Assembly: GCA_022703645.1 (NCBI GenBank)
Contig: JAKLDG010000001.1
Location: forward strand, 163,274-227,273
Origin: Patescibacteria group bacterium
GTDB taxonomy: Bacteria; Patescibacteriota; JACPGU01
Direction: 5' to 3'
Length of the DNA: 64,000 nucleotides
Part shown: positions 5,793-61,001 of the stretch, piece after piece
How the letters are laid out: each line of letters begins with the position of its first letter
How positions within the stretch are numbered: the first letter of the stretch is position 1
Translations under genes and position numbers: made by a program
The notes under the pieces: model-generated
What the model saw: the letters and a program-made list of their open reading frames with translations, nothing else
What the model was told of the DNA's origin: nothing
The model's database searches: none

Positions 5793-7121
5793 ATGACAAA
5801 CACAGTTAATCAAGAAGAAAATTCAGGCAAAGAAAATGGCAAAGACATTATCAAAGGCGGTCTCGTGCCGATGGAAAAGTTGCTAAAAGATGCGGCAACC
5901 ACTCTTAAAATTTATAAAGAAGGCGACGCAGTTCAAGCCAAAATCGAAAAGATTATGAAGAATAAGATTTTGGTTTCCATTGACGAACGCATGAATGGTA
6001 TAGTTGGTGGAAAAGAGCTCATGTTCGATCCGCAATTTGCAAAAGGTTTAAAACTTGGCGATACGATTACCGCTTATGTTGTTTATCCGGAAGATGACGA
6101 CGGAAATATTCTCTTATCACTTCGCAAAGCCGGCAGAGAAAACATTTGGGCAGGGCTTTACCAAAAATTCGAAGCAAAAGAATTGGTCAGCGTTGTGGTT
6201 ACGGATGCAAACAAAGGTGGGCTTATCATTGAACTTGGCGGAATCAAAGGATTTTTACCGGTTTCTCAGCTTTCCGCGGAACACTATCCGCGGGTTGAGG
6301 GAGCAAACAAAGATGAAATATTACTCAAATTGCAGCAAATGGTTGGTAAACCTATAGATCTTAAAATTTTATCAATTGATAAGGCAGGAAATAAATTAAT
6401 CTTCTCAGAACGCGAAGCAATCGGAAACCGCGATATTCCAGAGGGGCTTAAGATTGGCGATACAGTTACCGGCAAAGTTACAGGTATTGTTGATTTCGGC
6501 TTCTTTGTTGATGTGAACGGGGTAGAAGGGTTGGTTCACATCTCAGAAATTAGCTGGGCAAAGGTTGACGATATTTCAAAATTTGTCAAAGTCGGTGATG
6601 TGCTGAAACTTAAGATCATTGATATCGAAAACTCTCGTCTATCTCTGTCAATGAAGAGACTCGAAGAAGATCCATGGAAGAAAATGGTTCAAAACTTGAA
6701 AGTTGGCGATAAGATAAAAGGTACGATTAATAAGATTACTCAATTCGGAGCTTTTGTAAAAGTGAAAGTTGAAGATGGTGAGATCGACGCGCTTGTTCAT
6801 ATTTCAGAAATTTCCAGCAAGCACGTTTCTGACCCAAATGAAGTTTTGAAGACAGGCGAAACAAAAGAATTTAAGATTGTTACAATAGAACCTGATCAAC
6901 ACAGATTATCTTTGAGCCTCAAAGCATTGGAAGAGAAGAAAGAAAAGAAAGAAGAGAAGGAAAATAATGAAATTAAGGAAGAAATTGTGGATAAGAAATT
7001 AAAGAAGGAGAAGACGGAAGAAGCTAAGGAAGAAATTGAAGAAATTCAGGAGGAAATTAAAGAAGTGAAAGAAGAAAACGTAGAAGAGGAAAAGCCTGCG
7101 AAAAAGGCGAAGAAGAAATAA
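5793..7121 (+). CDS. rpsA: 30S ribosomal protein S1 with a Lys/Glu-rich C-terminal extension
   Basis: repeated S1 domains (e.g. GLVHISEISWAKVDDISKFVKVGDVLKLKIIDIE; ALVHISEISSKHVSDPNEVLKTGETKEFKIV). Confidence 0.85.
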   Translation: MTNTVNQEENSGKENGKDIIKGGLVPMEKLLKDAATTLKIYKEGDAVQAKIEKIMKNKILVSIDERMNGIVGGKELMFDPQFAKGLKLGDTITAYVVYPEDDDGNILLSLRKAGRENIWAGLYQKFEAKELVSVVVTDANKGGLIIELGGIKGFLPVSQLSAEHYPRVEGANKDEILLKLQQMVGKPIDLKILSIDKAGNKLIFSEREAIGNRDIPEGLKIGDTVTGKVTGIVDFGFFVDVNGVEGLVHISEISWAKVDDISKFVKVGDVLKLKIIDIENSRLSLSMKRLEEDPWKKMVQNLKVGDKIKGTINKITQFGAFVKVKVEDGEIDALVHISEISSKHVSDPNEVLKTGETKEFKIVTIEPDQHRLSLSLKALEEKKEKKEEKENNEIKEEIVDKKLKKEKTEEAKEEIEEIQEEIKEVKEENVEEEKPAKKAKKK

Positions 7122-7124
7122 ACT

Positions 7125-7412
7125 ATGATTACACCCGAAAGAACATGCGTTATTTGCAGAACAAAAAAACCGAAGAATGAACTTTTCCGTTTTGTGGTTG
7201 ATAAGGGAATCGTTAAGATAGATAAAGGGCAAAAGGAACAAAGCAGAGGTTTTTACATTTGTAGTAAAGAGTGTTGGGATAAATCAGTCAGCAAGAAAAG
7301 AAAGATTAGAATCGGATCGGATGCGAAACGCGCAGTTTCAGTGATTCTACCAGAGAAAACGTTCGAGGAGGTTGTGGAAGATGGGATAAAATTTTCTGCG
7401 ACAAACTTTTAA
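7125..7412 (+). CDS. ylxR: YlxR/DUF448 family RNA-binding protein
   Basis: N-terminal ERTCVICRTKKPKNELFRFV motif and GRGFYIC. Confidence 0.7.
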   Translation: MITPERTCVICRTKKPKNELFRFVVDKGIVKIDKGQKEQSRGFYICSKECWDKSVSKKRKIRIGSDAKRAVSVILPEKTFEEVVEDGIKFSATNF

Positions 7413-7446
7413 AAAAATAAATATTAAATTATGGAGGAATATTAAA

Positions 7447-8097
7447 ATGGACATCCGTTGGCTTGGTCATTCTTGTTTCGAGATAAAAAATAAAAGCATT
7501 TCTATTATTACGGATCCTTATAGTCCGGAGATCGGCTTGAAATTACCAAAATTGAAAGCTAATATTATTACTGTCAGCCACGATCATTATGACCACAATA
7601 ATATTGAGGCGATCGATAGCGCTTATGCTGATAAAAAACCATTTGTGATAGATGGCGATGGAGGATATGAGATTGAAGGAGTTCTTGTTGAAGGGATAAG
7701 AACTTTTCATGACGATAAGGGCGGAACGGAAAGAGGCCCCAACACTGTTTATGACATCAAAATAGATGGTATGACAGTTTGCCATCTCGGAGACCTTGGA
7801 GGGGATCTGACCGAAGAGCAAGTGGAAGAATTGGACGGCGTAGATATACTATTTGTTCCTGTTGGCGGCAAATATACTTTGGACGCAGAAGGAGCAGCAA
7901 AGGTGGTAAATAAAATCGAACCAAGAATTGTTATTCCAATGCATTATCAGATTGACGGATTGAAAATGGATATTGGCAATGCAGACAAATTTATTAAAGA
8001 AATAGGTTTGACTGCTGAAAATCTCGATTCATTGAAAATAGAGAAAAAAGATTTACCCGTGGAAGGAATGAGGCTAATTATTTTAAATAAAGCTTAA
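7447..8097 (+). CDS. MBL-fold metallo-hydrolase
   Basis: HxHxDH motif (SHDHYDH) and later conserved His/Asp residues. Confidence 0.75.
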   Translation: MDIRWLGHSCFEIKNKSISIITDPYSPEIGLKLPKLKANIITVSHDHYDHNNIEAIDSAYADKKPFVIDGDGGYEIEGVLVEGIRTFHDDKGGTERGPNTVYDIKIDGMTVCHLGDLGGDLTEEQVEELDGVDILFVPVGGKYTLDAEGAAKVVNKIEPRIVIPMHYQIDGLKMDIGNADKFIKEIGLTAENLDSLKIEKKDLPVEGMRLIILNKA

Positions 8098-8218: not shown

Positions 8219-8303
8219 GCCGCGGTGGCGGAACTGGCAGACGCGCAGGACTTAAAATCCTGTTCCCTAAACCGGAGTGCGGGTTCGACCCCCGCCCGCG
8301 GCA
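8219..8303 (+). tRNA. tRNA-Leu (anticodon TAA) with long variable arm
   Basis: acceptor GCCGCGG/CCGCGGC, D-arm TGGCGGAACTGGCAGACGCGC, anticodon stem CAGGA/TCCTG with loop CTTAAAA, T-arm GCGGGTTCGACCCCCGC, 85 nt. Confidence 0.8.
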
Positions 8304-8450
8304 TTTGTCTAGGCGACAGTAAGAAAGGTCATCTTCATTTTTTTGGAGATGATTTTTCTTTTGTGCGGGGGTCGAAGGGCGCGAGTAGAATGCGCCTATA
8401 AGAAGCATTCTGTGTGTAGCGCCCAGGCTCCGAGTCGGAGCGAGGAGGAT

Positions 8451-8479
8451 CCCCGCCCGCGGCATTTGTCTAGGCGACA
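8451..8479 (+). repeat. 29-bp exact direct repeat of the tRNA-Leu 3' end plus 15 bp of downstream flank (first copy 8290..8318): att-like duplication
   Basis: ccccgcccgcggcatttgtctaggcgaca occurs twice, 132 bp apart. Confidence 0.8.
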
Positions 8480-11542: not shown

Positions 11543-12763
11543 ATGCGATTATCCGATCTATCCGAAGAAGTATCATTTTCGCTAATTGCCAATAAATCAA
11601 GATCATTCCTGACCATTCTTGGTATTGTGATTGGTATTGCTTCAGTAATCGCGATGATCTCCATAGGCCAGGGATCACAAAGCGCAATAACCAATAGTAT
11701 TCAATCATTGGGGTCAAATCTGATTTCAGTAACTCCCGGATCTCAAAGAAATTTTGGTTTTGGAGCCAATCAGGGTAGGGGCTCTGCCCAAACACTGAAA
11801 AATTCTGACGCTACTGCTATTGCTGATCAAGTTGCTAACGTGAAATCGGTCGCGCCAGCGTATTCTACCCGTTATCAGGTAACACTCAAAGGAGCGAATA
11901 CGAACACGGCTGTATTGGGCACAACGCCTGAATATGCGGATATTAGAAATGTATCAATGGATAAAGGAAGTTTTTTTACGTCTGAAGATGTGAGCTCGAA
12001 AGCAAAAGTTGCGGTGCTTGGTCCAACTGTAGTGACAGACATATTTGGCGAGGATTATACGGACGATCCGACGGGAACTATTATAAAAATTAATAAGATA
12101 GAATTTACAATTATTGGCGTGGCAAAATCAAAAGGCGGAACCGGTTTTAATAATCAAGATGATATTGTCTATATTCCGCTCGACACCATGCAGAAATCTC
12201 TTTCAGGCACAAAATATCTTTCAAATATTAGTATTCAAGCCACAAAAGCTGATGCTATGACTCAAGTTCAGGAAGATATTACTGCTCTTCTAATTGAACT
12301 GCATAAAGTCACGACAGCCGATTTCTCTGTTCAGAATCAAAACGACTTGATGTCTACCGCTACATCCACTTCAAAGACGATGACGATATTACTGGCTTCA
12401 GTAGCGGCAATATCACTCATTGTTGGTGGGATTGGAATAATGAATATGATGTTGACTAATGTTACGGAGCGAACGCGCGAGATCGGGCTTCGCAAAGCGA
12501 TTGGCGCGAAAAGAAGAGATATTAATACCCAATTTTTGGCCGAGGCGGTAACACTGACTTTTCTCGGAGGAGTCATCGGGATAGTTCTTGGTGTGGCAGT
12601 ATCGTTAGTAATTAATTACTTTGGCTGGATGACTACCACAATCACGCCATACTCAATTTTCTTAGCATTTGGTGTTTCAGCTCTGATCGGTGTGGTATTT
12701 GGCTACTATCCGGCAAAAGGCGCCGCAGCTATGAATCCGATAGAAGCATTGAGATATGAATAA
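11543..12763 (+). CDS. ABC transporter permease (MacB/FtsX family with periplasmic domain)
   Basis: N-terminal TM, large periplasmic domain, C-terminal FtsX-like four-helix permease region. Confidence 0.8.
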   Translation: MRLSDLSEEVSFSLIANKSRSFLTILGIVIGIASVIAMISIGQGSQSAITNSIQSLGSNLISVTPGSQRNFGFGANQGRGSAQTLKNSDATAIADQVANVKSVAPAYSTRYQVTLKGANTNTAVLGTTPEYADIRNVSMDKGSFFTSEDVSSKAKVAVLGPTVVTDIFGEDYTDDPTGTIIKINKIEFTIIGVAKSKGGTGFNNQDDIVYIPLDTMQKSLSGTKYLSNISIQATKADAMTQVQEDITALLIELHKVTTADFSVQNQNDLMSTATSTSKTMTILLASVAAISLIVGGIGIMNMMLTNVTERTREIGLRKAIGAKRRDINTQFLAEAVTLTFLGGVIGIVLGVAVSLVINYFGWMTTTITPYSIFLAFGVSALIGVVFGYYPAKGAAAMNPIEALRYE

Positions 12764-18769: not shown

Positions 18770-18890
18770 TTTTTCAATTTTCAAGTATCAATTTTCAATC
18801 AATTTCCAATTATTCAATATTCAATTGTGTATTGTGAAATTGTAACATTTATTGAGAATTGTAAATTGAGAATTGAGAATTTTATTATTA
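18770..18890. repeat. AT-rich palindromic spacer element (caatt/aattg family)
   Basis: ttttcaattttcaagtatcaattttcaatcaatttccaatt ... aattgtaaattgagaattgagaatt. Confidence 0.6.
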
Positions 18891-20179
18891 TGTCAAAAAA
18901 ATCTTTAAATAAAAAACCTAGAGTGGTAGTCGCGATGAGCGGAGGTGTCGACAGCTGCGTCGCTGCTTATTTATTGAAAAAGCAAGGATACGAAGTTATT
19001 GGAGTTTTTTTGAAATTCTGGACACCGCCGGTTTCTGTCTGTGGCACCTCGCGTGAAAATGCATGCTGTGATATGCGAGCGCTTTTGTTGGCCCGCCAAG
19101 TGGCTGGACAATTAGACATACCCTTTTATACTGTTAATGTGTCCAGTTATTTTAAAAAAGAGATAGTGGACAATTTTGTCCATGAATATGAGTCGGGTCG
19201 CACACCGAATCCTTGTGTCAGGTGTAATGAGAAGATAAAATTCGGAGTTCTTTGGAAAAAAGCGAGAGCGCTTGGAGCCGACTATCTCGCGACTGGACAC
19301 TATGTTAGGAAATGTCAAATGTCAAATATCAAATATCAAAAGAAATCAAAAATTAGTCATTTGTCATTTGAAATTGATTCGAAATTTGACATTTGTAATT
19401 TGACATTCAGTCTTATGCGCAGCAAAGACGTTAACAAGGACCAGGCCTATTTCTTAAGCGGTATTGATGCGAGAATAATCCCACACTTGCTGTTTCCTCT
19501 TGGCGATATGGTGAAAAAAGATGTCCGTGAGATTGCAAAAAAAGCCAAACTACCAGTTTATAATAAAAAAGATTCCACCGGAATCTGTTTTATACCTGAT
19601 GGCGATACTTCATCATTTCTTTCTCATTATTCAAATAAACTGAACAAATCAGGTAATATTGTGGATAAAAATGGGAATGTACTTGGAAAACATAAGGGTT
19701 TGATGGGATATACGGTTGGGGAAAAGATTGGAGGAGAAATTTTCAATTTTCAATTTTCAATTTTCAATCAATATTCAATACCCAATATTCAAGATCAAAA
19801 GGATAAAATAAAAAAAGACGTTCCTCGTTTATACGTAATAAGGATTGATGTTAAAAAAAATCGCTTAATCATCGGTGAAAACGAAGATTGTTTTACAGAT
19901 ACGCTGATTGCTGAAGATGTGAATATTATTGGTTCCGATCTTTTTACAAAGAAAACTATTTTAGCTCAAATCAGAGGCGGTCATAAACCCGAACGTTGTC
20001 ATATTGTAGGGGCGGGGATTTCCCCCGCCCGAATTAAAGGGCGACCGCAAGGGTCGCCCCTACGGGTTTCCAAATTAAATATTAAATTTCTCAAACCTGT
20101 TCGCGCTGTAACTCCGGGACAGACTGTGGCTTTTTATGATCTCAAAGGGAAACTTCTTGGCGGGGGAATAATCAAATAA
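18890..20179 (+). CDS. mnmA: tRNA 2-thiouridylase MnmA carrying three in-frame repeat insertions
   Basis: PP-loop VVVAMSGGVDSCV, NPCVRCN, C-terminal conserved region; ATG at 18890; about 60-70 extra residues from the insertions at 19311..19407, 19735..19795 and 20006..20063. Confidence 0.8.
   Translation: MSKKSLNKKPRVVVAMSGGVDSCVAAYLLKKQGYEVIGVFLKFWTPPVSVCGTSRENACCDMRALLLARQVAGQLDIPFYTVNVSSYFKKEIVDNFVHEYESGRTPNPCVRCNEKIKFGVLWKKARALGADYLATGHYVRKCQMSNIKYQKKSKISHLSFEIDSKFDICNLTFSLMRSKDVNKDQAYFLSGIDARIIPHLLFPLGDMVKKDVREIAKKAKLPVYNKKDSTGICFIPDGDTSSFLSHYSNKLNKSGNIVDKNGNVLGKHKGLMGYTVGEKIGGEIFNFQFSIFNQYSIPNIQDQKDKIKKDVPRLYVIRIDVKKNRLIIGENEDCFTDTLIAEDVNIIGSDLFTKKTILAQIRGGHKPERCHIVGAGISPARIKGRPQGSPLRVSKLNIKFLKPVRAVTPGQTVAFYDLKGKLLGGGIIK
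20006..20063. repeat. GC-rich GTAG-headed REP-like palindromic element (58 nt) inserted in frame in mnmA
   Basis: gtaggggcgggg...ccccgccc...gggcgacc-gcaa-gggtcgcccctac; outer GTAGGGGC/GCCCCTAC stem enclosing two internal hairpins. Confidence 0.6.
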
Positions 20180-24348: not shown

Positions 24349-24417
24349 TTTTAGTCAAGTCAAGGCAGGGTACAGAACTTCACGTTTACGGATAGCGTCA
24401 AAATCCGAAAAACAAAA

Positions 24418-24441
24418 CCCCCGGCGGATGCCGGGGGTTTT
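24418..24441 (+). terminator. rho-independent terminator (cccccggc-ggat-gccggggg plus TTTT)
   Basis: 8-bp GC stem plus T-run directly after the 1149-aa gene. Confidence 0.75.
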
Positions 24442-24473: not shown

Positions 24474-25049
24474 ATGGAAAACGTACAATCATATAAACAA
24501 AAAAACAAAAAATCAAGAAAACAAATCCGACTCAATGATTACGATTATAGCGAACCAGGGGATTATTTCGTAACGATTTGTACGCAAGATAGAGGGTGTT
24601 TGTTTGGGAAGATTGTAGATGGAGAGATGGTTTTGAATGATTTAGGCGAGATTGTCGAAAATGAAATATCAAATATTCCAAAAAGATTTAAAAATTCAGA
24701 AATCGATATCCATTCCGTTATGCCAAATCACCTGCATTTAATAATTTCAATTTTATGTGATGATGATATTGTAGGGGCAACCCTTGCGGTTGCCTATAAT
24801 AACCGGGCAGGGGCAAGCCCTGCCCCTACAATAGGGGATATCGTCGGTTCGTTTAAATCATTATGTTTTAAAGAATATAAAAAATATGTTGAGAAAAATG
24901 ATTTAAATTTACAAACAAAATTTTGGCAGCGTAATTATTATGAAGAAATAATTAAGAATGAAAGACATTATAATGAGGTGTATAATTATATTTTATCCAA
25001 TCCTTCTAAATGGGAAGAGGATAGAAATAACCCAAATAATATAGTATAA
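24474..25049 (+). CDS. IS200/RAYT-like HUH Y1 transposase (REP-associated tyrosine transposase family)
   Basis: YFVTICTQDRG...FG N-terminal motif; HUH motif PNHLHLII; C-terminal WQRNYYEEIIKNERHYNEVYNYILSNPSKWEED (catalytic Tyr region typical of RAYT/TnpA_IS200-like proteins); carries an internal GC-rich palindrome. Confidence 0.65.
   Translation: MENVQSYKQKNKKSRKQIRLNDYDYSEPGDYFVTICTQDRGCLFGKIVDGEMVLNDLGEIVENEISNIPKRFKNSEIDIHSVMPNHLHLIISILCDDDIVGATLAVAYNNRAGASPAPTIGDIVGSFKSLCFKEYKKYVEKNDLNLQTKFWQRNYYEEIIKNERHYNEVYNYILSNPSKWEEDRNNPNNIV
24771..24829. repeat. GC-rich GTAG-headed REP-like palindromic element (59 nt) inserted in frame inside the RAYT-like gene
   Basis: gtaggggcaacccttgcggttgcc...gggcaggggcaagccctgcccctac; flanked by ttgtagggg/cccctacaa as in the mnmA copy. 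Confidence 0.6.
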
Positions 25050-25712: not shown

Positions 25713-25742
25713 AAATCCCCCAGCATCCGCTGGGGGATTTTA
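25713..25742. terminator. bidirectional rho-independent terminator (aatcccccagc-atcc-gctgggggatt) between convergent genes
   Basis: 11-bp stem with A-run upstream and T-run downstream. Confidence 0.75.
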
Positions 25743-38671: not shown

Positions 38672-38702
38672 GGTGAAGGGTTTAGGGTATAGGGTATAGT
38701 AG

Positions 38703-38729
38703 GGGCGAGCCGTTGGCTCGCCCATTTTT
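38703..38729 (+). terminator. rho-independent terminator of greA (gggcgagcc-gtt-ggctcgccc plus T-run), preceded by GTAG like the REP-like elements
   Basis: 9-bp GC stem plus ATTTTT. Confidence 0.7.
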
Positions 38730-39960: not shown

Positions 39961-39990
39961 GTGGCCCCGACTTTGTCGGGGCCACTTTTC
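39961..39990 (+). terminator. rho-independent terminator (gtggccccgac-tttg-gtcggggccac plus TTTT)
   Basis: 11-bp perfect stem. Confidence 0.8.
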
Positions 39991-54175: not shown

Positions 54176-55126
54176 ATGAAAAATATTTGGAAAGAACTAT
54201 CGAAAGATAAAAAACCTTTTGTTGCGTTAGCGCCTATGGCTGGTGTGACCGATTTTCCATTTCGGGAGATAATTGCGGAAATAGGAAAGCCTGATGTGAT
54301 GTTTACGGAATTCGTTTCTACAGAACATATCGCAAGGGTTTCTGAAACGCCTTTGGTTTTGAAATTTTCAAAAAAGCAGCGACCGATTATCGCGCAATTT
54401 TTTGGTTCAAAGCCGGAACAGTTTGAAAAATGCGCGCAATTAGCATTAAAATTAGGATTTGATGGGATAGATATCAATATGGGCTGCCCTGATCGCAAGG
54501 TTCTAAAACAAGGCGCGGGATCGGAACTTATAAAAAATTCAGAGTTAGCGGTCGAGATTATCCGCACGGTAAAAAAAGTTGTCGACGGTAAAATCCCTGT
54601 TTCGGTCAAAACGAGGATAGGATGGGACGAAAAAAATATTTCAAAATATTTGGAAATATTAAAAAATATTGTTGCCACGGAAAATATCAGTGCGATAACA
54701 ATTCATGGGAGAACTGCAAAACAAGGGTATTCTGGCAATGCAGACTGGGAGACTATCGGAAAATTTACAAAAGAATTGAAAAAAGTAAATAAAAATTTAA
54801 TCGTGATTGGGAATGGTGACATCAAAAATTTGGCGCAAGGAAAAATGTTAGTTGATAAATACGACCTTGATGGATTTATGATTGGTCGCCAAATTCTCAA
54901 AAATCCTTGGGTATTCAGTAGCGGCAGAAAATTTTCTGCCCCTACGATACGAAAAAGGTTAAAAATCGCCCTGAAGCATACGGAACTTTTTCAAAAATTC
55001 TATGGCGAGAAGGCTTCATTTGGCGCAATGAAAAAATACTATAAAGCATATCTATCCGGTTTTGAAATCAAAAAAGATTTGATGAATGCGAAGAATTTTG
55101 AAGAAGCGAAGAAGATTTTAAAATAA
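54176..55126 (+). CDS. dus: tRNA-dihydrouridine synthase (Dus family)
   Basis: LAPMAGVTDFPFREI, DINMGCPDRKV, TIHGRT motifs; carries an in-frame 28-nt REP-like insertion encoding GRKFSAP. Confidence 0.85.
   Translation: MKNIWKELSKDKKPFVALAPMAGVTDFPFREIIAEIGKPDVMFTEFVSTEHIARVSETPLVLKFSKKQRPIIAQFFGSKPEQFEKCAQLALKLGFDGIDINMGCPDRKVLKQGAGSELIKNSELAVEIIRTVKKVVDGKIPVSVKTRIGWDEKNISKYLEILKNIVATENISAITIHGRTAKQGYSGNADWETIGKFTKELKKVNKNLIVIGNGDIKNLAQGKMLVDKYDLDGFMIGRQILKNPWVFSSGRKFSAPTIRKRLKIALKHTELFQKFYGEKASFGAMKKYYKAYLSGFEIKKDLMNAKNFEEAKKILK
54917..54944. repeat. 28-nt GTAG-headed palindromic REP-like element inserted in frame in dus
   Basis: gtagcggcagaaaattttctgcccctac; 27/28 identical to the copy in prmC. 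Confidence 0.6.
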
Positions 55127-60146: not shown

Positions 60147-61001
60147 TTAAATTTCAACGATAACGACGCGGTCTTTTTTTGCGAGGTCTTTTTTTATATC
60201 AACCACAGCATTTGGGAAAAACTTTTTTGCGATCTTGATGATTTTATTTTTTTGGCTCGGATTGATCTCGAGAAACAAAGAGAGACTATCCCATTTTCTT
60301 TCTTTTATCTGGCTAAATAGTTTCTCGTAGATTTCCAAGCCTTCTTTGCCGCCGTAGAGCGCCAGACGAGGCTCTTTGGTAATGCTTGGCTCTTGCAACT
60401 CATCATGCGTGAGATAAGGCAAATTAGCGACGATGATATCAGGTTTAGATTTGATGTTTTGTAATAGATCTGATTTTTTGAATCGGATATTGGATATTGG
60501 GTATTGGGTATTTCGAAGGTTGTATCTAGCAACCTTCAGCGCTTTCTCTGAAATGTCTACCGCTGTTATTTTCGTTTTTGGCAAGTATTTTGCGAGAGTT
60601 AAAGCTATACAACCCGAACCGGTACCGATTTCAAGGATTCTGGTAGGGGCAGAAAATTTTCTGCCCCTACAATAGTTGATAACGTTTTCAACGATCAACT
60701 CGGTTTCAGGACGGGGAACGAGAACATCCTCATTTACATAAAAATCAATCCCATAGAACTCTTTTTTACCTACAATGTACGCGATAGGGTAGTTTTTTTT
60801 GCGTTTGGAAATCAATTTTTTGTATTTATTGAATTGGGCATTGGTCATTGGGTATTGGGTATTTGAAATTAGTTTTTCTAAATTACACCCCAATAAAAAA
60901 CTAATAAGTATTTCCGCATCTAACCTGGCAGAAGGGATACTTGACATTCTTAATTCATTTGTTCCATACTTTAGCGCTTTATCTACGGAAATAATTGACA
61001 T
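60147..61001 (-). CDS. prmC: release factor glutamine N5-methyltransferase PrmC/HemK with in-frame repeat insertions
   Basis: motif I ILEIGTGSGCIALTLA, VLVPRPETE, catalytic IVANLPYL (NPPY-like); peptide repeats QYPMTNAQF / QYPISNIRF come from AT-rich repeat copies; CRGRKFSAPT comes from the 28-nt REP-like element. Confidence 0.8.
   Translation of the reverse strand: MSIISVDKALKYGTNELRMSSIPSARLDAEILISFLLGCNLEKLISNTQYPMTNAQFNKYKKLISKRKKNYPIAYIVGKKEFYGIDFYVNEDVLVPRPETELIVENVINYCRGRKFSAPTRILEIGTGSGCIALTLAKYLPKTKITAVDISEKALKVARYNLRNTQYPISNIRFKKSDLLQNIKSKPDIIVANLPYLTHDELQEPSITKEPRLALYGGKEGLEIYEKLFSQIKERKWDSLSLFLEINPSQKNKIIKIAKKFFPNAVVDIKKDLAKKDRVVIVEI
60643..60670. repeat. 28-nt perfect palindrome GTAGGGGCAGAAAATTTTCTGCCCCTAC (REP-like) inserted in frame in prmC
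   Basis: 14+14 self-complementary; near-identical to 54917..54944. Confidence 0.65.

Follow-up and report, generated by a model that had tools for sequence, protein, structure and literature searches.

The closest described relatives of the system analyzed here are the REP-associated tyrosine transposases (RAYTs, also known as TnpA_REP) of subclass 2.4 in the classification of Quentin et al. (2018, BMC Genomics 19:475, PMC6006769), where this subclass is equated with RAYT group 4 of Bertels et al. 2017. Enzymes of subclass 2.4 have a mean length of 194 amino acids (aa), are characterized by the motifs NH[IFV]H, WQ and YIxNNP, and have been found in "Cyanobacteria Bacteroidetes and various phyla"; the accompanying repetitive extragenic palindromic (REP) elements are either canonical long REPs or "double foot" REPs with 5' GT[AG]G and 3' C[TC]AC, and the hallmark of the subclass is the presence of double-foot REPs in frame inside the tnpA_REP gene itself, between HuH and Y (PMC6006769). 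Intragenic GTAG REPs, single or in dimers encoding 20-30 aa, have also been described in genes of various functions including tRNA modification (Di Nocera et al. 2013, BMC Genomics 14:522, PMC3733652); they are most numerous in Opitutus terrae, and Xanthomonas recB genes contain different REPs at about the same site (PMC3733652). Here we analyze a stretch of 64,000 nucleotides (nt), hereafter the window, from a ~0.87-Mb genome of the Patescibacteria, or Candidate Phyla Radiation (CPR), which contains a RAYT gene and four GTAG...CTAC palindromes located inside protein-coding genes. This locus very probably represents a RAYT of subclass 2.4 (group 4) together with its cognate GTAG double-foot REPs. 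The case for this assignment is built from the family, motifs and fold of the enzyme, the hairpins with their conserved feet and covarying stems, their in-frame sites, the presence of such a hairpin in RAYT genes across the family, and the occurrence of the same element in many phyla.

The RAYT gene (24474..25049, forward strand; coordinates refer to the window unless another locus is named) encodes a protein of 191 aa, named 'transposase' of a Patescibacteria group bacterium by NCBI (HRY60193.1), with the sequence ...YFVTICTQ...MPNHLHLI...FWQRNYYEEIIKNE...YILSNPSKWEED and the tyrosine region FWQRNYYE. The HUH motif PNHLHLI (24723..24743, forward strand) includes H86 (24729-24731) and H88 (24735-24737), and the catalytic-tyrosine motif WQRNYYE (24924..24944, forward strand) includes Y155 (24936-24938). 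Nine residues, namely M83, P84, N85, H86, H88, W151, R153, Y155 and E157, are invariant in 26 aligned RAYT homologs. The best-scoring NCBIfam family for this open reading frame (ORF) is REP_Tyr_transpos (NF047646, REP-associated tyrosine transposase; E = 3.1e-14), as against E = 4.5e-4 (20 bits) for the IS200 model, and many of the homologs are labeled "REP element-mobilizing transposase RayT" by the Joint Genome Institute (JGI).

The AlphaFold2 model of the RAYT has a mean predicted local distance difference test score (pLDDT) of 80, with values > 90 in the core, and a predicted template modeling score (pTM) of 0.75; the HUH histidines are located on strand E86-93. When the model is compared with the PDB using Foldseek, the best 30 matches are all Y1 transposases (ISDra2, IS608, IS200, Sulfolobus; E <= 1.5e-4), with no other family above them, and among these matches 4er8, the E. 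coli TnpA_REP in complex with a REP hairpin, has the best TM-score (0.53) and the best rmsd (4.0 A, with 164 columns). In a sequence search of the PDB, 4er8 is a marginal match (E = 0.09), yet both the HUH and the tyrosine regions align, the tyrosine motif with 'IWQPRFWEH' of the E. coli enzyme. By analogy with the W-x-R-x-Y register of the IS200/IS605 TnpA, Y155 is the probable nucleophile. Family scores, motifs and fold thus bear out the original prediction that this ORF encodes a RAYT-type Y1/HUH enzyme.

The same genome encodes a second RAYT paralog (P0031, 175 aa), which is 47% identical to the first, and the catalytic residues are intact in both. In locus L001 (9244-10528; JGI Ga0116241_10000009), P0031 lies 20 nt downstream of a gene for a XerC/D-type tyrosine recombinase and adjoins a HaeIII-type restriction-modification pair; in a second assembly (L002), the restriction-modification genes upstream of the recombinase are absent. 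A Y1_Tnp gene in L128, a locus from a related member of the Patescibacteria (6916-7575), belongs to another Y1 family without the WQR motif and was set aside.

One of the four palindromes, a 59-nt double-foot REP consisting of a tail-to-tail hairpin pair (24771..24829, forward strand), lies in frame within the RAYT gene, between the codons for H88 and Y155, and encodes residues V100-T119 (VGATLAVAYNNRAGASPAPT), the trait that defines subclass 2.4. A 58-nt double-foot REP pair (20006..20063, forward strand; encoding VGAGISPARIKGRPQGSPL) is in frame in mnmA, the gene for tRNA 2-thiouridylase (18890..20179, forward strand; 429 aa from the NCBI start, HRY60191.1; Pfam tRNA_Me_trans, E = 1.2e-70, and matches to MnmA structures in the PDB). 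The other two are 28-nt double-foot REPs. The copy in dus (54918..54945, forward strand), with one stem mismatch (GTAGCGGC), is translated as SGRKFSAPT within the linker that follows the TIM barrel of a tRNA-dihydrouridine synthase (54176..55126, forward strand; Pfam Dus, E = 7.2e-69; PDB 1vhn, E = 9e-39). The copy in prmC (60643..60670, reverse strand) is a perfect palindrome and encodes RGRKFSAPT just before the GTGSG S-adenosylmethionine (SAM)-binding motif of the release-factor glutamine methyltransferase (60147..61001, reverse strand; Pfam PrmC_N and MTS; PDB HemK, E = 7e-30). None of the four double-foot palindromes contains a stop codon, all lie within long ORFs, and both 28-mers are read in the same register, GRKFSAPT.

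Folded as single-stranded DNA (ssDNA), the 28-mers yield a single hairpin of 12 bp (-12.6 kcal/mol; the z values of the two copies are -8.0 and -5.0). The 58- and 59-mers yield two discrete hairpins each, with the terminal GTAG (5') and CTAC (3') left unpaired, so that each of these longer elements is a tail-to-tail pair of single-foot REPs. For the elements other than the 28-mers, z ranges from -3.7 to -7.1. The four palindromes are beyond chance: matches to the 28-mer with <= 3 mismatches number 2 in the window vs 0.00 expected, and exact matches to the foot-plus-stem octamer GTAGGGGC number 9 vs 0.49 expected, a count that none of 100 shuffles reaches. A looser rule (GTAG..CTAC with 8-nt arms and <= 1 mismatch) finds 4 elements in the window vs a simulated mean of 1.06 and maximum of 4, and is not significant alone. 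Coordinates and folding confirm GTAG-footed REP-type hairpins at all four sites, as originally described, with a correction of one base in dus, where the palindrome had been placed at 54917..54944; the mnmA, RAYT and prmC coordinates were right. The description of these copies as in frame within coding sequence, much as the Rickettsia palindromic elements (RPEs) are, holds as well.

The statement that every copy is intragenic is accurate for the double-foot elements of the window, but a GTAG hairpin that is a candidate single-foot (canonical) REP is intergenic, 28 nt after the greA stop codon (38699..38725, forward strand; 9-bp GC stem followed by a T-run; -12.1 kcal/mol, z = -5.6); it may double as a terminator, and its REP membership is unproven. 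Across the 84.5 kb of this genome that were sampled (the window and L001), there are 5 double-foot elements (~1 per 15 kb) with 4 different cores, plus the single-foot candidate. The motif (A/C)TATT directly precedes a GTAG foot in 4 of the 5 double-foot elements (window 20001-20005, 24766-24770 and 60671-60675; L001 10272-10276), and the element of the first RAYT has the motif on both sides (TATT|GTAG...CTAC|AATA); it may belong to the element itself or serve as a motif for cleavage or targeting. Several candidates were rejected: a GTGG...CCAC double-foot match at 39961..39985 is a T-run terminator after a Band7 gene, similar matches at 12593 and 59997 are AT-rich chance matches, and the GTAGGGGC octamer at 11775, in a MacB-like gene, has a 4-bp stem only and was left out of the count. 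Scanned against Rfam, the window gave three tRNAs only, with no curated RNA family over the hairpins.

The hairpin within the RAYT gene is a trait of the family. The sequence "VGATLAVA...RAGASPAPT" follows immediately after the HUH strand in homologs from Patescibacteria, Deltaproteobacteria, Pedobacter, Schekmanbacteria and other groups, with the number of repeats varying from 1 to 3 or more, and one or both of VGATLAVA and AGASPAPT are found in 97 of the 112 closest homologs with recognizable motifs. Among 80 metagenomic loci taken with the family alignment, the HUH and WQR motifs are found in one frame in 70, and in 62 of these 70, a GT[AGC]G...C[TCG]AC element is present in frame between these two motifs, with very diverse internal sequences. 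The P0031 paralog has GTAGGGGCGGGTTTGAAACCCGCCCCTAC at this position, read as VGAGLKPAPT, and a Pedobacter homolog has a perfect 24-bp single stem with GTCG/CGAC feet. Between the Pedobacter and window copies, there are paired synonymous changes that keep the stems (GGCAACC/GGTTGCC to GGCGACC/GGTCGCC). In a set of 19 28-mers from RAYT and host genes, 97.8% of the cells are paired, and there are 43 double-sided changes vs 11.5 +/- 2.7 in shuffled sets (0 of 500 reach this value); the covariation is found at pairs 8-12, which were not used for selection, and GTAG/CTAC is invariant or nearly so. From the palindromes of the homologs and this covariation, it follows that the hairpin and its feet are conserved rather than a peptide. 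In the structural model, residues 100-119 belong to a loop that joins strand 86-93 to helix 120-141 and is predicted with low confidence (pLDDT < 50 at 98-114). Being near-universal in the family, the RAYT-gene copy is not a recent insertion.

The 28-mer itself is not confined to this genome. A scan of one genome per species for its 18-nt core, GGCAGAAAATTTTCTGCC, yields at least 120 loci. Among the matches listed (125 occurrences), 50 have GTAGG at the 5' side and 48 have CCTAC at the 3' side, and the identical full 28-mer is found in Bacteroidota, Ignavibacteria, Kapaibacteria, Methylococcaceae, Sphingomonadales, Chitinispirillales and others. Again among the matches listed, at least 12 ORFs spanning the 28-mer match a RAYT hidden Markov model (HMM) and read it as VGAENFLPL, other in-frame copies reside in putative fmt-like, HlyD-like and ELP3-like genes (judged by the appearance of the translations), and in other phyla many copies are intergenic. 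The same element is read as VGAENFLPL in some genes and, in another frame, as RGRKFSAPT in others. Given that an identical 28-mer occurs across phyla, the near-identity of the two window copies gives no date for their arrival. The intergenic 28-mers (L011, L024, L077, L106 and others) are often enclosed in longer palindromes, the outer arms of which differ from copy to copy (CATACAC-REP-GTGTATG, AAAAAAC-REP-GTTTTTT); it looks as if the REP either lies in the loop of a pre-existing hairpin or makes an inverted duplication upon insertion.

Comparison of the host genes with their orthologs in related Patescibacteria bears on the age of the insertion sites. In the PrmC orthologs (45-67% identical), the loop from PRPETE...VExVI to ILEIGTGSG is highly variable, and several of them contain REP-type peptides. 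At the same codon of prmC in syntenic loci, the window has its 28-mer, L127 has a 28-mer with the core CACGTTGCAACGT, the 5' foot of which is degenerate (GCAG), and L128 and L126 have a 52-nt pair and a 79-nt element, respectively; the left junction, T|G(T/C)AG, is identical in all four. Another 28-mer, shifted by one base, is present in L129, and L130 has no REP. The respective PrmC segment measures 21-24 aa with a 28-mer, vs a median of 23 aa in 111 REP-free orthologs, and 31-40 aa with REP pairs. In dus, the window 28-mer and an unrelated 28-mer of L128 (GTAGAGACGAACGGCCGTTCGTCTCTAC) fill exactly the same codons; in L126, the site encodes SGKKNVSLKT without palindromic DNA, and Thermotoga maritima Dus has SGKYSEPS at the position aligned with the window 28-mer. 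In mnmA, there is a clear net insertion, with the window protein ~15-17 aa longer at the turn than the REP-free orthologs, and other MnmA orthologs carry different REP-like or AT-rich insertions at that turn.

The alignment of orthologs therefore confirms an insertion in mnmA, where the 58-mer adds a net ~15-17 aa, whereas the 28-mers of prmC and dus scarcely lengthen the loops, so that the original notion of elements adding peptides applies to the former and not to the latter. It is as if single 28-mers overwrite ~9 codons rather than add them. The sites in prmC, dus and mnmA are long-standing insertion hot spots in loops and linkers. Each of the REP cores found at these orthologous sites belongs to a repeat family within its own genome, and because different cores, rather than diverged copies of one core, occupy the orthologous sites, turnover after the split of the lineages is implied. 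We considered that the loops of REP-free orthologs could be decayed REPs, for example, with KKLQ/CTACAA as remnants in L130. A more far-reaching proposal is that REPs at fixed intragenic sites act as exchangeable cassettes in these Patescibacteria. It is prompted by the five unrelated prmC cores in five genomes, four of them with the same left junction, by the two dus 28-mers and by the unchanged loop length, and we hold it to be rather unlikely; if true, the surface loops of essential enzymes would be diversified by a new route, RAYT-catalyzed replacement from foot to foot or conversion of one REP by another.

Several further features of these host genes were observed. In L128 (GCA_028718745.1; 10001-10936 and 15180-16193), PrmC has two REPs and Dus has three, one of which is a single-foot REP read as CRGAIHCAQ and equal in length to the native segment of the window protein; the 52-mer of L128 prmC and a 54-mer of L128 dus consist of nearly the same two hairpins in opposite orientation. 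The Dus ortholog of L126 (15100-16300) is interrupted by an in-frame stop (..RPIIA*FFGCKPEQ..) and annotated as a truncated gene of 231 aa, which makes it a pseudogene or an assembly error. Compared with the solved MnmA structures, the window mnmA has two more in-frame insertions, both AT-rich (19316-19402 and ~19733-19820; peptides QMSNIKYQKKSKISHLSFEIDSKFDICNL and EIFNFQFSIFNQYSIPNIQDQKDKIKK), the first of which falls on an inverted repeat built from AAATGTCAAAT-type units, with its arms at 19310-19334 and 19377-19401. At both of these spots, MnmA orthologs have other low-complexity peptides, of the 'QISNLKSQ / KIPNNKLQITNKSQ' type, which points to a second class of in-frame repeats, rich in AT, in these genomes.

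The mechanism of the IS200/IS605 TnpA and of the E. coli TnpA_REP is well established (structures 4er8, 2vjv and others), and by analogy, the course of events in the Patescibacteria can be outlined. The RAYT, a single-domain HUH/Y1 nuclease, would bind the REP hairpin extruded in ssDNA, reading the GTAG tetranucleotide at its foot, would cut the strand via a 5'-phosphotyrosine at Y155, with H86 and H88 holding the metal, and would rejoin the cut strand elsewhere, which would make the REPs non-autonomous passengers of the RAYT, possibly to this day. In a compact genome, the copies that persist would be those inserted in frame into surface loops and linkers that tolerate them, that is, the turn in the C-terminal barrel of MnmA, the interdomain linker of Dus, the PrmC loop before motif I, and the RAYT loop between the HUH strand and the next helix.

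As one alternative to this scenario, the RAYT segment VGATLAVA...RAGASPAPT could be a functional protein element; its palindromy would then be a by-product, and the palindromes of the other genes would be unrelated. Among the 112 closest homologs, which come from several phyla, the two peptides hardly vary, but more distant homologs have wholly different peptides there, every one encoded by a GTAG...CTAC palindrome, and the variable copy number, the paired synonymous changes relative to Pedobacter, the two reading frames, the predicted disorder of the segment and its placement away from the DNA-binding surface by Quentin et al. (PMC6006769) all speak for the DNA element, so that we regard a peptide function as very improbable. 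Selection in place of the hairpins as host regulatory structures, such as mRNA stabilizers, pause sites or terminators, with no mobilization by the RAYT, would fit the terminator-like element next to greA, the longer palindromes with A-run/T-run flanks that often surround intergenic copies in other phyla, and some effects on mRNA stability and termination that have been reported for REPs elsewhere. It leaves unexplained the invariant GTAG/CTAC feet, the near-universal presence in RAYT genes, and the identical 28-mer in unrelated genes and phyla, and appears improbable as a complete account; as an addition, it is compatible with the RAYT/REP interpretation because the elements could be co-opted after insertion. 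The original prediction envisaged a recently active, undescribed REP/RAYT variant that specifically targets coding sequence, pointing to the single base that distinguishes the two 28-mers and to the location of 4 of 4 double-foot window copies in coding sequence. With ~84% of the window coding, such a location is expected about half the time (0.84^4 = 0.50), and it is the intact reading frame and the tolerance of the copies that count; many copies are intergenic in other phyla, the type has already been published, and the insertion sites are old. Recent mobilization cannot be read from one mismatch when the identical 28-mer occurs in many phyla and the prmC and dus sites are occupied by REPs in relatives with PrmC 55-62% identical. 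This version of events is extremely unlikely.

A further alternative is a fossil or domesticated system, in which the RAYT no longer moves anything and the hairpins are old, vertically inherited relics, retained solely because their loss would harm the host genes. The same occupancy of the prmC and dus positions in such distant relatives fits this possibility, as do the paucity and mutual difference of the copies in the genome, the lack of variants of the checked proteins in the collection and hence of any presence/absence difference, and the treatment of RAYTs as domesticated, mostly single-copy genes (PMC5581495). What it fails to accommodate are the different cores at orthologous sites, each from a repeat family of its own genome, which imply turnover after the split, the intact catalytic residues of both RAYT paralogs, and the near-perfect stems in DNA of 38% GC (37.7% in the window), where mutation pressure should erode them; we consider it a possible but not a likely explanation. 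The RAYT/REP assignment itself has several points to contend with. The RAYT ORF scores 53.1 bits with REP_Tyr_transpos, below the NCBIfam equivalog cut-off of 80, and 21.4 bits (E = 2.8e-4) with Pfam PF01797 (Y1_Tnp), below the gathering score of 23, so that, of the profile matches suggested as a check, the REP-associated family comes out best, with both scores under the curated thresholds. The Pfam model aligns with no more than the C-terminal half, because the REP-coded loop splits the domain, and five homologs likewise have the REP-associated family as their best NCBIfam match at 52.7-76.1 bits, below 80; these scores fit a subclass distinct from the E. coli type. No GTAG hairpin occurs between the RAYT gene and its neighbors, the GC hairpins at 24417-24438 and 25716-25737 being T-run terminators, and the classical REPtron layout is thus absent because no REPs flank the gene. 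The copies are few and heterogeneous, and neither RAYT seen in the genome contains the core of the dus/prmC 28-mer (AGAAAATTTTCT), which leaves the cognate pairing unsupported for this particular element. Among the four window proteins that were checked, there is no sequence variant in the collection, and MnmA, PrmC and the RAYT, found on 2-4 contigs each, display no presence/absence polymorphism. Intact catalytic residues and near-perfect stems in an AT-rich genome argue for probable maintenance of the RAYT/REP system, whereas the low copy number, heterogeneous cores, old sites and lack of polymorphism among assemblies argue for slow or no dynamics.

If the subclass 2.4 assignment is correct, a RAYT/REP system of this type is also present in an ultra-small CPR genome, where the hairpins persist mainly as in-frame loop segments of essential genes for tRNA modification and translation because there is almost no intergenic space. 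For annotation and alignment, this means that recurrent peptides such as VGAxxxxPL, RGxxxxAPT and GRKFSAPT are translated REPs rather than conserved protein motifs and inflate the apparent homology between unrelated proteins. If confirmed on whole genomes, the presence of different REPs at identical codons of related genomes without lengthening of the loop would bear on the way in which RAYTs disseminate REPs. Elsewhere in the window, a 29-nt direct repeat (CCCCGCCCGCGGCATTTGTCTAGGCGACA; 8290-8318 and 8451-8479) takes in the 3' terminus of tRNA-Leu(taa) and a further 15 nt, with its second copy ~160 nt downstream; ARAGORN and Rfam find only the one tRNA at this repeat, which may have arisen by partial duplication of the tRNA or be an att-like scar.

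Among the known systems, the E. coli TnpA_REP (4er8; subclass 2.2), the transposase of the REP and bacterial interspersed mosaic element (BIME) type, shares with the RAYT described here the HUH/Y1 fold, the GTAG foot, a GC-rich hairpin substrate and a low gene copy number. Unlike the REPs of this genome, which are double-footed, few and intragenic, with one embedded in the transposase gene, those of E. coli occur outside genes, in hundreds of copies, and flank the transposase gene; each has only one foot and a bulge in its stem. More generally, the definition of classical REPs and BIMEs (extragenic, more than ~100 per genome) does not match four double-foot window copies inside coding sequence, with heterogeneous cores and a density of ~1 per 15 kb across the 84.5 kb covered. 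The IS200/IS605 TnpA have the same fold, with ISDra2 and IS608 as the top Foldseek matches, and likewise recognize a hairpin in ssDNA and a tetranucleotide, but in these insertion sequences, the gene is bounded by two hairpin ends and is mobilized together with them, whereas here there are short dispersed hairpins, one of them inside the gene. The 58- and 59-mers differ also from REPINs, a term said to go back to Bertels and Rainey in 2011, in which the arms of two inverted REPs pair into one long hairpin; in our elements, two independent, different hairpins are combined and only the feet are complementary.

The agreement with subclass 2.4 is much closer. It includes the NHxH and WQ motifs, a YIxxNP motif, a length of ~190 aa, the REP-made in-frame insertion between the HUH strand and the next helix, the double-foot REPs, canonical REPs with three G-C pairs at the base of the stem, and the scatter over many phyla. 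The window protein has NHLH, WQ and YILSNP, compared with the published NH[IFV]H and YIxNNP, and its homologs have NHIH, NHVH, NHMH and YIxNNP; the placement in subclass 2.4 is by such traits, rather than by the HMMs and MCL clustering of the authors, and the motifs alone would also allow 2.6 and 2.7. The differences are the host, here a member of the Patescibacteria/CPR, and the lack of REPs flanking the gene. Neither of the words 'Patescibacteria' and 'Parcubacteria' occurs in PMC6006769, and a literature search for CPR-specific reports of in-frame palindromes returned nothing relevant.

With the GTAG REPs of Di Nocera et al., the elements of the Patescibacteria have in common the single or dimeric organization, the in-frame location in genes of known function, including those for tRNA modification, and the presence of different REPs at one orthologous site, with the difference that, in the genomes analyzed in that work, most REPs are intergenic, whereas in the Patescibacteria loci studied here, 11 of 13 double-foot elements are intragenic by our own tally against ORFs and called genes. 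The RPEs also are in-frame palindromic repeats in housekeeping genes of a reduced genome, tolerated in surface loops, but RPE-1 are longer palindromic insertions and RPE-4 and RPE-6 are CGTC-tagged, in contrast to the GTAG-tagged elements of 28-59 nt described here, and no CGTC-specific transposase gene is known (PMC3733652). The label of a previously undescribed variant, which was originally attached to this locus, has to be dropped since double-foot REPs inside the gene are the hallmark of subclass 2.4 (PMC6006769) and intragenic in-frame GTAG REPs had been described before (PMC3733652). The arrangement, published in 2013 and 2018, is represented here by a new example, not by a new kind of element; what goes beyond those papers, as far as we have searched, is the example from the Patescibacteria and the turnover of REPs, traced at the nucleotide level, at fixed codons.

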